In this document: positions 1,470 to 62,462 of the stretch, piece after piece
Layout: each line of letters starts with the position of its first letter
Position numbering within the stretch: position 1 is the stretch's first letter
IMG/VR virus record: IMGVR_UViG_3300012931_000667
Coordinates: 13,901 to 77,900 of that record
Length of the DNA stretch: 64,000 bases
Origin: a virus
Strand: one strand, 5' to 3'
Translations under genes and position numbers: made by a program
Notes under the pieces: model-generated
Database searches by the model: none
Seen by the model: the letters and a program-made list of their open reading frames with translations, nothing else
What the model was told of the DNA's origin: nothing

Positions 1470-1499
1470 AGTATACCCCTTTTATTTCTAATAAAAAAT

Positions 1500-1527
1500 A
1501 TTATACATAAATTACTAATTTTGTCAA
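1500..1527 (-). promoter_or_regulatory. sigma70-type promoter at the 3' end of the GIY-YIG gene
   Basis: TTGACA (1527-1522), 16 nt spacer, TATAAT (1505-1500), upstream of ORF starting at 1469. Confidence 0.6.
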
Positions 1528-1530
1528 TAG

Positions 1531-2313
1531 TTATCCTTCATAATACATCCAATGAAATCCACCAGCTTTATTTATTTCTCCTCTACAACAAGCTCCAATA
1601 CTTGTTCTATTAACTTTTGTTATTTTTGAAGCTTCATGTATAGATTCATAAACAATATTAGTTTCAATATATAAAACTTTTTTTGAGTTCACATTCAAGT
1701 TCCCTCTTTTACCATACATATGATTTTTTTCACCTAATTGTGCTATAGACATTTTATCTTTATGTTCTTTAGTAAATTTTTTACCTTTTCTTAATATACT
1801 CATTTTTGTTTTTGTTTCTTCTGAAGCTTTTTTTCCTAATTTTGTTTTTCTCATTTTTTCTTTAGATTTTTCAGTATGACTTCTTCCTAACCATATTTTA
1901 TTTCCTTTTTTAATTCTTCTTAAATTGTCTTTAACTTTTTCTGATCTTGGTTTCCCTAATTTTGATAAACTTATTTTTAATTTTGCTTCTTCAGTTAAAC
2001 CTCCATTAGTACCTCCTTCTTTCATATTGTACCCATATTCTTTATTTAGTGTCTTATAGAAACTAATGTAGAAACATTCCAAAATATTTAGAATTAATTG
2101 ATCTTTTCTATTTATGTTTGATAATATCTCAAATTTAAAATTATCTTTTCCATAAGTAATCCAAGATTTTTGTAGATGTTTATTATAATGCTTATTATTA
2201 TTTAATAATTTTTTATGATCTTTCCATCTATTATCAATATTTATGCTTTGACCTATATACTTTTTATTATTAATTAAATTAGTAATACAGTAAATCCCAA
2301 TAATTTTTTCCAT
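1531..2313 (-). CDS. free-standing GIY-YIG homing endonuclease with NUMOD3/NUMOD1-type DNA-binding repeats
   Basis: GIYCITN...KYIGQS..R, E and GYN catalytic motifs; HTEKSKEKM repeats; C-terminal YESIHEAS...CC...AGGFHW. Confidence 0.92.
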   Translation of the reverse strand: MEKIIGIYCITNLINNKKYIGQSINIDNRWKDHKKLLNNNKHYNKHLQKSWITYGKDNFKFEILSNINRKDQLILNILECFYISFYKTLNKEYGYNMKEGGTNGGLTEEAKLKISLSKLGKPRSEKVKDNLRRIKKGNKIWLGRSHTEKSKEKMRKTKLGKKASEETKTKMSILRKGKKFTKEHKDKMSIAQLGEKNHMYGKRGNLNVNSKKVLYIETNIVYESIHEASKITKVNRTSIGACCRGEINKAGGFHWMYYEG

Positions 2314-2429
2314 TATTTTTCCCTTTTAAGTGGTTCCCGCCACTAATACAAATAGTTAAAAAATTAAAAGAGTTAGCTTAAAATTATTAATTTCGAGCAA
2401 CAGGCGGGAACCTGCTGTCCTCTTCTAAT
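2314..2429 (-). ncRNA. structured leader copy A (three-way junction + SD-proximal hairpin, kissing loops UUCCCG/CGGGAA)
   Basis: GAAGAG-GA-CAGCAGG[TTCCCG]CCTGTTG-CTCGAAATT[AAT]AATTTTAAG-CTAA-CTCTTT..TAACTAT..AGTGG[CGGGAA]CCACT-TAAAAGGG..ATG; three homologous covarying copies elsewhere in the window. Confidence 0.85.
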
Positions 2430-5055: not shown

Positions 5056-5499
5056 TTAATTTAAGTATGATAATGGAAATCTTGATATAATAGAATATAG
5101 ATTAGGAGTTACATAATCTTTAGCTTCTTCCATAGTAACATACATAAAATTATCAACTTCTGGACTATTACTATTATCAATAAGGGAATTACATTTTAAA
5201 CTAGATGTAGAAAGTAACCAATTAGAACTATTGTTAGGATTCCAAAATTTTAATTCATATAAAACTAAGAATTTACCCCTAGTATAAGAATGAATACCTA
5301 AAAAATTAATAGAAGAATCATATATATGTCTATTAATATTTGTTTCTTCATATAATTCTCGTGAAGCACATTCTAAATAACTTTCATTATCTTCTTTTAT
5401 ACCTTTTGGGATATCCCACCTAGAAGGATTAGAATTAGTTACATGACAAATTAAGAATTTTTTGGTATCGTGTACTAAAGTTCCACATGTATAGATCAT
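5056..5499 (-). CDS. Nudix hydrolase
   Basis: Nudix box WDIPKGIKEDNESYLECASRELYEETN. Confidence 0.9.
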   Translation of the reverse strand: MIYTCGTLVHDTKKFLICHVTNSNPSRWDIPKGIKEDNESYLECASRELYEETNINRHIYDSSINFLGIHSYTRGKFLVLYELKFWNPNNSSNWLLSTSSLKCNSLIDNSNSPEVDNFMYVTMEEAKDYVTPNLYSIISRFPLSYLN

Positions 5500-34656: not shown

Positions 34657-34772
34657 ATTAAGAGGACAGTAGGTTGACGCCTATTGCTAAAATTATTCCA
34701 GTTTTAGCTAACTCTTTTATTTTTTTTAACTATATAAAATAAAGTTGCGTCAACAACTTAAAAGGAAAAATT
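34657..34772 (+). ncRNA. structured leader copy B (kissing loops UUGACG/CGUCAA)
   Basis: AAGAG-GA-CAGTAGG[TTGACG]CCTATTG-CTAAAATT[ATTCC]AGTTTTAG-CTAA-CTCTT..TAACTAT..AAGTTG[CGTCAA]CAACTT-AAAAGG..ATG. Confidence 0.85.
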
Positions 34773-35624
34773 ATGGAAGAAAAAGTATTGTTACTTGAAG
34801 ATCGTAGATTTTATGTTTATATTTATCTAGACCCTAGAAAACCTGGAAATTACAACTATGGTGAATACCATTTTGATTTTGAACCTTTTTATGTTGGTAA
34901 AGGAAGTGGATATAGAGCTTGGAGTCATTTGCAATCTTATATGTTAAAAGAAACTGGAAATTTAAGAATTAATAAATTTAGAAAAATTATTAATAATGGA
35001 TATAAAATAGAACCTATAATAATTAAAACTAATATTTTAGAAAAAGAATCTTTTTATTATGAAAAATTATTAATTAAATTGATAGGAAGATATGATAAAA
35101 ATAAAGGACCATTAGTTAATCAAACAGATGGTGGAGAGGGTACTTGTGGAACTATTTTTTCTAAAGAAGCTATAGAAAAAATGAGACAAGCTAATTTAGG
35201 TAGAAGATATTCCAATGAAATTAATAAGAAAAAAGGAAGAAAAGGAAGATTAGTTTCAGAGGAAACTAAAGAAAAACATAAACAATATAAAGTTTCTGAA
35301 GAAGTAAAGAGAAAACAATCTAAAAATAAAGAAGGAAATAAAAATCCTAGATTTGGAAAACCAGCAATGAATAGAGTTAAAGTTATTTATGTAAATGAGA
35401 ATAAAGAATTTAATTCTTTATTAGAAGCTGGAGAGTACACTAATAGGTGTTCAAGTGATATTCACAAATGTTGTTCTGGAAAAGTAAAATCAATAGGAAG
35501 AAATAGTGGAAATAAATTTTATTTTATGTATGTATCAACTTATATTAGTTTATCTAATGAAGAAAAAAAACAATTATTATCTAATTTTGATTTAACACAA
35601 CAATTTATCTTAAACCATATATAA
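34773..35624 (+). CDS. free-standing GIY-YIG-family endonuclease (FYVY...FYVGKG subtype) with NUMOD-type repeats
   Basis: FYVYIYLDPR...PFYVGKGSGYRA, E..LIK.IGR, LVNQTDGGEG, SEETKEK repeats. Confidence 0.88.
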   Translation: MEEKVLLLEDRRFYVYIYLDPRKPGNYNYGEYHFDFEPFYVGKGSGYRAWSHLQSYMLKETGNLRINKFRKIINNGYKIEPIIIKTNILEKESFYYEKLLIKLIGRYDKNKGPLVNQTDGGEGTCGTIFSKEAIEKMRQANLGRRYSNEINKKKGRKGRLVSEETKEKHKQYKVSEEVKRKQSKNKEGNKNPRFGKPAMNRVKVIYVNENKEFNSLLEAGEYTNRCSSDIHKCCSGKVKSIGRNSGNKFYFMYVSTYISLSNEEKKQLLSNFDLTQQFILNHI

Positions 35625-41209: not shown

Positions 41210-41442
41210 TGGAACAACAAAACTTTGATTATAGAATATGTTTTCATAAAATGATTCATAATGAAGAATATTATGAAATACATAAAGTATACTATAAAAA
41301 AGATGGAACGATAGATAGAATAATTGATGCTCATCCTATTATAGGGAAAACTATTAGCGATATGAATACTGCATTAGGCATGATGTTATGGGCGGATAAA
41401 AAACCCATTATAGATTATAGTACTAAAAAGGAGATAGAATAA

Positions 41443-41565
41443 TTTATAGGGACAGCAAGGCGCTAACCTTGTTGCTAAGGTAATTCCAGCTTTAGCTAAC
41501 CTATTTTTTAATATTTTTAACTATTTAAAAATAGAAGTCTTTAGCGAGACTTAAAAGGAAAAATT
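41443..41565 (+). ncRNA. structured leader copy C (kissing loops CGCUAA/UUAGCG)
   Basis: ATAGG-GA-CAGCAAGG[CGCTAA]CCTTGTTG-CTAAGGT[AATTCCA]GCTTTAG-CTAA-CCTAT..TAACTAT..AAGTCT[TTAGCG]AGACTT-AAAAGG..ATG. Confidence 0.85.
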
Positions 41566-42516
41566 ATGGAAAATAGATTTCAAGAGGCATTTAGTAAATT
41601 ACCATCAGTTGATTTAGAGCATCAAATTCATTTGAATAGGTATATTAAATTTATTAGTAGCAGACTAGAAAGAAAATTTGAATATAAAAAAGGTTTGTGT
41701 AAACATCATGTACATCCTGTTTCTTTTGGAGCAAATAAAGGTTTTAAAGAAAAATGGAACATAATTGTACTAACAGAAAGAGAACATTTTATTGCTCATT
41801 TAATTCTATATAAATGCTATGGTGGAAAAATGACAAGAGCCTTTTTTATGATGAATAATGGAAAGAATATTTTAAGTGGTAATTATAGTAATTTAAATTC
41901 TAAACAATATGAAAAATTAAGAAAAGAGTATACAGAAAAAATAAGTGGAAAAGGTAATCCTATGTATGGTAAAGAAATGAAGGAAATAAATAAAAAATTA
42001 AGAAAAATTCTTTGGACAGGTAAAAATAATCCTATGTATAATTCAAAAAGATATAAAAATAAAAATCCTTTCTATGGTGAACATCATACTGAAGAAACTA
42101 AGATTAAATTAAAAAAAATAGATAAAACAAAAATAATGAAAAAAGTTATATTATTAAATACTAAAAAAATATTTAATAGTATAACAGAAGCTAGTAAGAT
42201 AACTAATATAAGTGCTAGTTCCATAATAGGTTGTTGTTCACATAATCCAAAAATTACTTGTACTCATTATGGATATGAAAATTATTATTGGTTATATATA
42301 GAAGAGTATGACCCTAATTTTGATTATAGCTATTTATTAGATTCTAAAAAAATTATTTGTATAGAAAAAAATGAAATATTTAATAGTGTAAAAGAATGTT
42401 CATTAAAAATGAATATTTCTGAAACATATTTATCATTATGTTGTAATAATAAAGTAGATTCTGCAAAAGGATATCATTTTATGAAGTATAATGCATATAA
42501 AGGAAAAAATGATTAA
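41566..42516 (+). CDS. free-standing HNH homing endonuclease with NUMOD-type repeats
   Basis: KHHVHP...NIIVLTEREHFIAHLIL; GKNNPMY and HTEETK repeats; two FNS..E....I..CC modules. Confidence 0.9.
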   Translation: MENRFQEAFSKLPSVDLEHQIHLNRYIKFISSRLERKFEYKKGLCKHHVHPVSFGANKGFKEKWNIIVLTEREHFIAHLILYKCYGGKMTRAFFMMNNGKNILSGNYSNLNSKQYEKLRKEYTEKISGKGNPMYGKEMKEINKKLRKILWTGKNNPMYNSKRYKNKNPFYGEHHTEETKIKLKKIDKTKIMKKVILLNTKKIFNSITEASKITNISASSIIGCCSHNPKITCTHYGYENYYWLYIEEYDPNFDYSYLLDSKKIICIEKNEIFNSVKECSLKMNISETYLSLCCNNKVDSAKGYHFMKYNAYKGKND

Positions 42517-47564: not shown

Positions 47565-48500
47565 ATGATTATAGGTATTTATAAAATAAGTAACAAAGTT
47601 AATGGAAAGGTTTATATTGGACAATCTTGGAATATTGAAAAAAGATTTAAAGAACATAGAAAAAGAGAACTTAATAATCATTTAAAAAATGCTTTTAATA
47701 AATATGAAATTGAAAATTTTTCTTTTGAAATAATAATGACCTTTAAAAATGGTCCCTTTACTCAAAAATATTTAGATAAATTTGAAGATTATTACATTAA
47801 ATTTTATGATTCAATGAATAGTAAAAAAGGATATAATAAACGTGAAGGAGGAAGTAATGGAAAGATGTCTAAAGAGTCAAAAATTAAAATAGGTAATGCT
47901 AGTAGAGGTGAAAAAAATGCTAATTATGGAAAAAAATTTTCTAAAGAAACCTTATTTAAAATGAGAATAGCTAAATTAGGAATTAAACAATCTGAAGAAC
48001 TTAAAATAAAAAGAGGAATATATAAAAAAGGAAAAGATAATCCTCACTATGGCATTATTCGTTCTGATGAAACAAAATATAAAATAAAAATTAGTAGAAA
48101 TAAAATGGCTGTTGTCTGTATAGAGACTAAAGAAAAATTTGATTCTGTAACAGAAGCTAGTAAAAAATATAAAATAGATAAAAAATCAATATTAAATGTT
48201 TGTAGAAATATTATCAATTATAATACTGCTGGTGGCTTTCATTGGATGTTTTTAAGTGATTATGATGAAAATAAAATTTATAATTTTAGAAAAAACAAAA
48301 CAAATGAAATTAAGGTAATAAATATAGATACTATGGAAATTTTTGATTCAATTACAAAAGCCGCTAAAAAATATAATTTATCTATTTCTAATATTCATTC
48401 TTGTTGTAATAAAAAACAAAAAACTGCTGGTGGTTATCAATGGATGTACTATATTGAATATTTAAAATTAGGACTTGACAAGAAAAGTATAATATGTTAG
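47565..48500 (+). CDS. free-standing GIY-YIG homing endonuclease with NUMOD repeats
   Basis: GIYKISN...VYIGQS..R..H, GYN..EGG, two FDS.T.A...TAGG.W modules; paralogous to 1531-2313. Confidence 0.92.
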   Translation: MIIGIYKISNKVNGKVYIGQSWNIEKRFKEHRKRELNNHLKNAFNKYEIENFSFEIIMTFKNGPFTQKYLDKFEDYYIKFYDSMNSKKGYNKREGGSNGKMSKESKIKIGNASRGEKNANYGKKFSKETLFKMRIAKLGIKQSEELKIKRGIYKKGKDNPHYGIIRSDETKYKIKISRNKMAVVCIETKEKFDSVTEASKKYKIDKKSILNVCRNIINYNTAGGFHWMFLSDYDENKIYNFRKNKTNEIKVINIDTMEIFDSITKAAKKYNLSISNIHSCCNKKQKTAGGYQWMYYIEYLKLGLDKKSIIC

Positions 48501-61578: not shown

Positions 61579-61691
61579 AAAGGGACAACAGGCTACTAAC
61601 CTGCTGATTGAAAGTAACTCCTTCAATCTAACCTTTTTATTTTTTAACTATATTAATACAGACTTTAGTAGAGTCTTAAAAGGAAAAAATT
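61579..61691 (+). ncRNA. structured leader copy D (kissing loops CUACUAA/UUAGUAG)
   Basis: AAAGG-GA-CAACAGG[CTACTAA]CCTGCTG-ATTGAA[AGTAACTCC]TTCAAT-CTAA-CCTTT..TAACTAT..AGACT[TTAGTAG]AGTCT-TAAAAGG..ATG. Confidence 0.85.
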
Positions 61692-62462
61692 ATGAGTGAA
61701 ACAAAAGTATGTAAAACTTGTAAAGAAGAAAAAGATATAATCAATTTTTATATTGATAAAAATGGTTATATAAGTGGTAATTGTAGAGCATGTATAAAAA
61801 TAATTAAAAAACAATATAATGATTCTCATAAAGAACAACATAGTAAAAGTAGGAAAAAATATTATTATTCTCATTTAAATCAAGAAAAAGAATATAGACA
61901 AAAATATAATAATTCTAATAAAGAAAAGAATAAAGAAAAGAATAAAAATTATTATTTAAAAAATAAATCAGACAGAGATAAGTATAGTCATGATTACTAT
62001 CTTTCTCATTTAGATGAAAGAAAAGATTATCATAAAAAATTTTATATAGAAAATAAAGAATATTATAATAATTTTAGAGAAAATTATAAAGAAAAAAGAA
62101 ATAAATATCAAAGAGATCGTTTAAAAATTGATATTAATTTTCGTCTTTCTACTAATTTAAGAATAAGAGTACAGAATGCTGTTAAAAGAGGAACCAAAAC
62201 TGGTTCAGCAGTACAAGATTTAGGATGTTCTATTGAATTTTTTAAAGAATATATAGAAAAACAGTTTAAATTCGGTATGACTTGGGAAAATTGGGGTATT
62301 ACAGGATGGCAATTAGATCATATAAAACCATTATCAGGATTTGATTTAACTAATAGAGAAGAATTTTTACAAGCAGTACATTATACAAATTATCAACCTT
62401 TATGGTATGATGAAAATATTAGAAAAGGTGGAGTAAGAAAACCTAGAATTAAAAAAGAGTAA
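61692..62462 (+). CDS. free-standing HNH endonuclease (N-terminal Zn finger, helical linker, C-terminal HNH)
   Basis: CKTC...CRAC; LGCSIE...GMTWENWG..WQLDHIKPL...HYTNYQPLW..EN..K. Confidence 0.88.
   Translation: MSETKVCKTCKEEKDIINFYIDKNGYISGNCRACIKIIKKQYNDSHKEQHSKSRKKYYYSHLNQEKEYRQKYNNSNKEKNKEKNKNYYLKNKSDRDKYSHDYYLSHLDERKDYHKKFYIENKEYYNNFRENYKEKRNKYQRDRLKIDINFRLSTNLRIRVQNAVKRGTKTGSAVQDLGCSIEFFKEYIEKQFKFGMTWENWGITGWQLDHIKPLSGFDLTNREEFLQAVHYTNYQPLWYDENIRKGGVRKPRIKKE

Follow-up and report, generated by a model that had tools for sequence, protein, structure and literature searches.

Homing endonucleases must stay quiet enough not to harm the phage that carries them and, to our knowledge, the only worked examples of such silencing are a few gene-specific hairpins in T4-type coliphages. 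An RNA structure which masks the ribosome-binding site, combined with an internal late promoter, has been shown for I-TevI and was proposed for I-TevII, I-TevIII, segB and Aeh1 mobE (PMC2988022). In the T4 scheme, RNA that reads through at early and middle times is silent, and translation takes place on the short late RNA (PMC2988022).

The DNA considered here is a stretch of 64,000 nucleotides (the window), comprising bases 13901–77900 of the 77.9-kb IMG/VR virus record IMGVR_UViG_3300012931_000667, which has a G+C content of 25% and an estimated completeness of 39%; the sequencing runs listed for its source are of wetland metagenome DNA. It carries four copies of a leader of about 110 nt, the only copies in the whole genome, and each takes up the space that separates a phage gene's stop codon from the ATG of a free-standing homing endonuclease gene. 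Upstream of the leaders lie genes for a Hen1-type methyltransferase fused to an RNA ligase, for a Dda-like helicase and for a family A DNA polymerase, and a small ORF following a lipase. All four downstream genes encode homing endonucleases, and these are of four different kinds: a GIY-YIG protein with NUMOD3 behind leader A (1531–2313, minus strand), a LEM-3-like GIY-YIG protein behind leader B (34773–35624, plus strand), a phrog_655 homing endonuclease with NUMOD1 and NUMOD3 behind leader C (41566–42516, plus strand) and an endonuclease VII-like protein behind leader D (61692–62462, plus strand). A homing endonuclease is also encoded downstream in six of seven metagenome homologues and, for 29 further downstream genes, endonuclease families were matched most, with eight matches each to phrog_559 and phrog_314 and seven to phrog_655. 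The leader almost always heads free-standing homing endonuclease genes, and it does so in many uncultured phages. It is not required by every endonuclease gene because a fifth one in the window (47565–48500), encoding a GIY-YIG protein with NUMOD3 and an I-HmuI-like NUMOD, has no leader, and its ATG directly abuts the upstream stop codon (TAGTTATG). Directly after the stop codon of endonuclease gene A there is also a full-consensus sigma-70 promoter (TTGACA-17-TATAAT; 1499–1527, minus strand) which stands in front of the ORF at 1146–1469.

Like the leaders of T-even endonuclease genes, these leaders lie directly upstream of a homing endonuclease gene and would include the Shine-Dalgarno (SD) sequence among their paired partners (PMC2988022). 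As in the T-even leaders, the structure needs sequences flanking an internal promoter, which is late or middle in the T-even genes and here a putative one, such that it would form only on read-through RNA. A stable hairpin located just upstream of the ribosome-binding site, and not containing it, is found in seg43(25) (PMC2988022), as for hairpin P4 below. The T-even leaders, however, are single local hairpins that are gene specific, whereas here a single family of about 110 nt extends across endonuclease families and phage lineages and consists of a three-way junction with two long-range loop pairings; no sequence relation to the T-even hairpins was seen. The leaders also resemble the PeSLs of T4-like phages (PMC2839356, PMC4122927) in being a short conserved intergenic module of stem-loop and promoter, repeated in the genome before unrelated accessory genes, which could be a recombination site. 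PeSLs, however, are simple stem-loops that include an early sigma-70 promoter and are defined as DNA elements, and they carry neither a junction nor a covarying long-range loop pairing, and have no specific link to endonucleases.

For the loop pairing itself, the nearest parallels are the kissing loops of ColE1 RNA I/RNA II, HIV TAR/TAR* and the c4 RNA of phages P1 and P7 (RF01695), where loops of 6–7 nt likewise pair over their full length. The specificity of c4 is set by loop/target pairs that vary among related phages, and the c4 regulator and its target derive from one transcript. These RNAs act between two molecules or after processing, whereas the leader partners lie about 65–75 nt apart on one RNA and identical loops can occur twice in a phage. 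The pRNA of phi29-type phages also combines a three-way junction with two mutually complementary loops that covary between phages, but there the loops pair between molecules to build a ring on the portal, and each genome has a single pRNA, which is no leader and has no link to endonucleases.

The three-way junction, formed by stems P1, P2 and P3, begins a few bases past the stop codon of the upstream phage gene and the elements follow in the order P1, GA, P2 with loop L2, P3 with loop L3, CUAA, P1′, a promoter-like box, P4 with loop L4, UAAAG-N-UAAAA, SD and AUG. Leader C occupies 41443–41565 on the plus strand (74 bits and E 1e-11 with our covariance model R1), from just past the upstream stop codon TAA (41440–41442) to one base before the endonuclease ATG. 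The 5′ strand of its P1, AUAGG (41446–41450), pairs with CCUAU (41500–41504), and is followed by hairpins P2 (41453–41474; CAGCAAGG / CCUUGUUG) and P3 (41475–41495), the latter carrying L3, UUCC (41484–41487), which is complementary to GGAA (41557–41560) of the SD. The junction strand CUAA and the P1 3′ strand together cover 41496–41504; they are followed by a T-rich tract (41505–41518), which precedes the promoter-like TAACTAT box (41518–41524) situated between L2 and L4, and by hairpin P4 (41535–41552; AAGUCU / AGACUU). The SD, AAGGA (41555–41559), and the start codon ATG (41566–41568) complete the region 41555–41568. Leader A extends over 2314–2429 on the minus strand, with its TAACTAT box at 2352–2358, leader B over 34657–34772 on the plus strand, with the box at 34727–34733, and leader D over 61579–61691 on the plus strand, with the box at 61645–61651; R1 scores them at 109, 102 and 89 bits, respectively.

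In the window copies P2 is a stem of 7–8 bp (CAGYAGG/CCURYUG) and P4 one of 5–6 bp, the 3′ strand of which ends in the conserved CUUAAAAG, while P1 is a weak, A/U-rich stem of about 5 bp. P1 covaries between copies (AAGAG/CUCUU, AUAGG/CCUAU, AAAGG/CCUUU, AUGGG/CCCAU and others), and so do P2, P3 and P4. The invariant features of the leader are GGA and CUAAC, the latter comprising the junction CUAA and the first base of P1′ and being present in 13 of 13 copies. The third pair of P2 (41455 with 41472 in leader C) is a conserved wobble, with G.U in eight, A.C in four and A-U in one of 13 copies; geometry rather than sequence looks to be conserved here and the pair may be a recognition or tertiary-contact feature. 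G.U pairs, including this wobble, are numerous and occur on the sense strand only, from which it follows that the folded molecule is the sense RNA. A tail of the form UAAAAG-N-(U)AAAA is conserved after P4 in all copies (41551–41563 in leader C), and since the real SD of the relatives (UAGGAG) lies 8–20 nt further downstream, this tail appears to be conserved for a reason other than SD function.

A first-pass annotation of the window had observed that L2 is the exact reverse complement of L4 in each leader, with a sequence differing from copy to copy, and on reexamination this holds for all four: UUCCCG (2410–2405, minus strand) and CGGGAA (2339–2334) in A, UUGACG (34674–34679) and CGUCAA (34748–34753) in B, CGCUAA (41461–41466) and UUAGCG (41541–41546) in C, and CUACUAA (61593–61599) and UUAGUAG (61665–61671) in D. 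Both partners are hairpin loops, of P2 and P4, and they pair over 6–7 bp, all Watson-Crick. Between the last base of L2 and the first base of L4 lie 61–74 nt overall and 65–74 nt in the window copies, and the loops have 50% G+C in genomes of 25–35% G+C. The complementary runs are of 6–8, with one of 10, and mostly stay within the loops.

The long-range pseudoknot proposed on this basis is supported by covariation in homologues. A wider set comprises 49 distinct copies, with metagenomes, IMG/VR and one MAG as sources, and the L2/L4 complementarity is exact in 48 of them, with 30 different loop pairs. It was exact in all 12 copies of a first set, in which L2 and L4 of non-cognate copies shared at most four contiguous pairs, and a result of 12 out of 12 was reached in none of 100000 permutations. 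When the kiss was treated as a pseudoknot in a model-fitted alignment of 13 sequences, 96.6% of the cells paired, against 71.4% in shuffles (0/500), and all six full columns of the kiss helix change on both sides; the small number of cells without a pair reflect shifted registers, in copy C and in the copy from locus L044. The loops are not free 6-mers, in that UUNNN(N)R is found on one strand, either L2 or L4, in 38 of 48 copies, and so only about 3–4 loop positions really vary, although the match is still far beyond chance. The sole exception among the 49 copies, L182:9298–9400(+), is a junction with L2 CUACUAA that lacks a P4/L4 partner and precedes a gene for a 584-aa DUF7487 protein. A divergent second leader, at L022:4243–4356(-), reads GAG[UUGUAG]CUC ... 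long P3 ... UUUUUUAACUAU ... GAU[GCUACAAC]AUC and retains an 8-nt long-range complement.

Several other explanations of the L2/L4 match were discarded. Chance is ruled out by the permutation and shuffle tests, and a protein-binding inverted repeat or a DNA cruciform by the copy-by-copy covariation and by the restriction of G.U to the sense strand. A long alternative helix replacing the kiss was rejected because the complementarity seldom runs past the loops, and a tRNA-like element because L3 is unlike a T-loop. The hammerhead core has the strands CUGANGA and GAA and the cleavage-site H in its junction; the leader's junction strands (GA, none and CUAA) do not fit a hammerhead or other known ribozyme, and there was no Rfam match.

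When the window and three leaders were compared by BLAST with 50,697 phage records, no real match emerged, no relative of the window's DNA polymerase with more than 24% identity was present among the same records, and searches of IMG/VR with the polymerase found none. A first sequence pattern (TTTTTAACTAT...CTTAAAAGG) yielded chance matches only in IMG/VR, and a second gave 140 matches that were mostly due to chance; around these second-pattern matches a 6-nt complement somewhere in the sequence was common, and what is special to the leaders is its placement in both loops. Among the chance matches was a repeat of about 130 nt (...CTAACACAACTTTAATTAACTAT...CGGCTCTTAAAAGCC...), unrelated to the leader, which recurs on many separate metagenome contigs (loci L030, L032, L037, L041, L042, L047, L051, L058 and others). 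On a contig binned in a Vulcanibacillus MAG, a polymerase relative is accompanied by a leader in the corresponding position, the loop pair of which is new, CUGGUA/UACCAG, and a second contig of the same bin carries a further leader with UUGCUG/CAGCAA. A pattern for the 3′ half gave seven further distinct copies from metagenomes and IMG/VR, and one combining P2 with CTAAC gave 38 IMG/VR stretches within which R1, built from a seed of five sequences (MAFFT misaligned P4), scores 44 matches. With the covariance models of Rfam 15, nothing in the whole window reached a gathering score, and leaders B and C produced chance matches only (E at least 0.9) when E values up to 10 were allowed; the leader thus matches none of the Rfam families, which include c4 antisense RNA, self-cleaving ribozymes and riboswitches. 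A literature search found no published description of the leader. The RNA family and its double-pseudoknot build therefore appear to be undescribed, whereas the regulatory logic is already known.

The second pseudoknot involves L3, a predicted anti-SD loop which covaries with the SD of the same leader. When L3 was compared with the 20 nt before the ATG in 40 copies, the mean complementary run was 5.4, against 4.2 for non-cognate combinations, and the observed mean was reached in none of 20000 permutations. The pairs are copy specific, for example UCCGUAA/UUACGGA, CUCCUAUUU/AAAUAGGAG, AAUAACCUU/AAGGUUAUU and UACCUCU/AGAGGUA, and the matches run beyond the GGA or GGAG core (at L074, L034, L182, L190, L158 and other loci). 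Those in the window are short, with UUCC/GGAA (4 bp) in B and C, UCCUU/AAGGA (5 bp) in D and none in A, in which L2 (UUCCC) also matches the copy's own SD (GGGAA). Moreover, P4 ends 3–4 nt before the SD and does not contain it, and L4 itself is not the SD. Given these short matches and the exclusion of the SD from P4, repression would rest on crowding and weak pairing. In nested folding the SD was less open in the long than in the short transcript in 11 of 11 copies, a modest effect from calculations in which pseudoknots cannot be included.

The box between the two halves of the leader is probably a promoter in this phage. In this genome, TAACTAT occurs within 70 nt upstream of gene starts 17 times in the sense orientation, where 2.6 are expected, and three times in the antisense orientation, and the genes behind it are mixed, including those for an exonuclease, a NUDIX hydrolase and a head protease. 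A simple scan for sigma-70 and terminator consensus sequences found nothing at the leaders. The box depends on the lineage, being TAACTAT in this phage and TATAAATA in other members: the slot 3–12 nt before P4 is occupied by TATAAATA in 12 other members and by ATAAATA in three more, at a distance of 3–7 nt, and by TACTAWT in a further seven. We take TATAAATA to be the T4 late promoter consensus; it is concentrated upstream of genes in the loci that carry it, where most of the sites are the leaders themselves. Thus, as judged from these comparisons, the RNA fold is conserved around whichever promoter-like box the local phage uses. A run of at least five U after P1′ is present in 14 of 19 copies of the TAACTAT type, against one of 15 of the TATAAATA type, and because the U tract is associated with the TAACTAT box and not with the junction, termination at the junction is not a feature of the family. 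Nor do the leaders show the G+C-rich stem and U tract, conserved across members, of an intrinsic terminator. At L022:1215–1286(-) a plain terminator hairpin is followed by TTTTTTTTAACTAT in front of another gene, its U8 running directly into AACTAT.

The reading that we favour, and hold to be somewhat probable, is that the leader constitutes a lock acting in cis on read-through transcripts, which is built from the two pseudoknots and bypassed by the internal promoter. The RNA reading through from the upstream gene carries both halves of the leader and on it L2 would grip L4 and L3 would pair with the SD, such that a compact double pseudoknot would hold the ribosome-binding site in its grasp and leave the nuclease untranslated. 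The leader fold would, in other words, repress translation in cis. Transcripts from the internal box would start at or just before P4 and, lacking the junction, L2 and L3, would be translatable. The G+C-rich kiss of L2 and L4 would add a stability and register that the short and generic pairing of L3 with the SD lacks. This cis lock fits better than the alternatives because the promoter-like box lies between L2 and L4 and because L3 pairs with the SD, and none of the rival readings explains these two features together.

The first-pass annotation had gone further in regarding the distinct loops as a code that keeps the four cassettes orthogonal, a property considered most relevant if the 5′ junction were released and acted in trans. 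While the pseudoknot is supported, this part of the proposal is not, since a small repertoire of loops recurs in unrelated cassettes and one contig carries two cassettes with identical loops. Among 48 copies UUCCAG occurs five times and UUCCCG four times, and the loop pairs of B and D are found again at L181 and L158, respectively, a recurrence which resembles random draws from a small alphabet and gives, at the level of sequence, no sign of selection for difference. On L185, a 109-kb IMG/VR contig, the cassettes at 2245–2342(-) and 5248–5344(-) share P2-L2 and P4-L4 (CUCUAA/UUAGAG) and differ in P1, P3 and the reading frame that follows. These identical loops, together with the recurring pairs, demonstrate that a difference between copies is not obligatory. 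Both observations also weigh against a trans mechanism, in which a junction RNA of about 65 nt, freed when transcription terminates at the U tract or through processing, would find the L4 hairpin of its cognate mRNA through L2, with distinct loops preventing cross-talk among cassettes within a phage or between co-infecting phages. Such a mechanism would accord with the mutual orthogonality of the window copies, where cognate duplexes are predicted at -5.4 to -7.8 kcal/mol and non-cognate ones at -2.6 or weaker, with non-cognate runs of at most four, and with the occurrence of different loops on most multi-copy contigs. UU also starts one loop of most pairs, as it does the U-turn loops of natural antisense RNAs, and a U-rich tract follows P1′ in this lineage. 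That tract, however, is present in only one of the 15 TATAAATA-type copies, the terminator scan was empty at the leaders, and L3 targets a generic SD, which is sensible only if L3 is held in cis. We therefore consider the trans code unlikely; action of a released 5′ junction is not supported by the sequences, and trans action is the weaker reading. It is similarly doubtful, and perhaps a little more so, that L2 and L4 serve in addition as an intermolecular address, by which the junction of one cassette or phage silences any endonuclease message with a matching P4. If this were true, a small alphabet of loop alleles would determine, when phages infect together, which of the selfish nucleases are silenced, and homing endonucleases would be subject to an immunity or incompatibility system operating at the level of RNA.

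Other readings retain the L2/L4 contact and assign it a different role. P2, the kiss and P4 could stack into a quasi-continuous duplex of about 18–21 bp, to which the stem lengths do sum (7–8, 6–7 and 5–6 bp), and a double-strand-specific RNase such as RNase III might cut it, thereby detaching the endonuclease message from the essential mRNA upstream or degrading the read-through copies. RNase III acts on the kissing complexes of antisense systems and phages use intergenic RNase III sites, and the conserved P2 wobble and the invariant GGA and CUAAC could be recognition features; such a processing or stability element is nevertheless improbable in our view, as it leaves unexplained both the anti-SD loop L3 and the promoter placed between the two halves. 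Covariation cannot separate pairing in cis from pairing in trans, and hence L2 of one RNA might kiss L4 of another, with dimers or chains setting the level of expression. Intermolecular loop pairing has precedents in phi29 pRNA rings and in retroviral dimerisation, and phi29 pRNA has the layout of the leader, a three-way junction bearing two loops that are complementary to each other, but the narrow spacing of L2 and L4 (61–74 nt) and the pairing of L3 with an SD on the same molecule fit one folded domain, and a packaging or structural context is lacking, so that we judge this very unlikely. We would assign an equally low or still lower probability to a PeSL-like cassette of branched terminator and promoter, in which the junction and U tract end one transcript, the box restarts another and the L2/L4 match is secondary. 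A plain version of such an arrangement does exist in the hairpin with U8 and AACTAT of the L022 contig, and mobile terminator/promoter cassettes occur in T4-like phages (PMC4122927). However, the exact covariation of L2 with L4 (48/49) and that of L3 with the SD would go unexplained, the U tract is not a feature of the family, and P1, an A/U-rich stem of about 5 bp, is weak.

If the cis lock is correct, one portable RNA module would keep unrelated nucleases of several families quiet in many lineages of uncultured phages. With 49 distinct copies and no Rfam match, the leader would be a new and well-supported class of structured RNA and, in its combination of fold and internal box, a compact natural device that makes translation depend on the promoter used. 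It would also be useful as a marker, in metagenomes, for mobile nuclease cassettes and for the promoter boxes of unknown phages.
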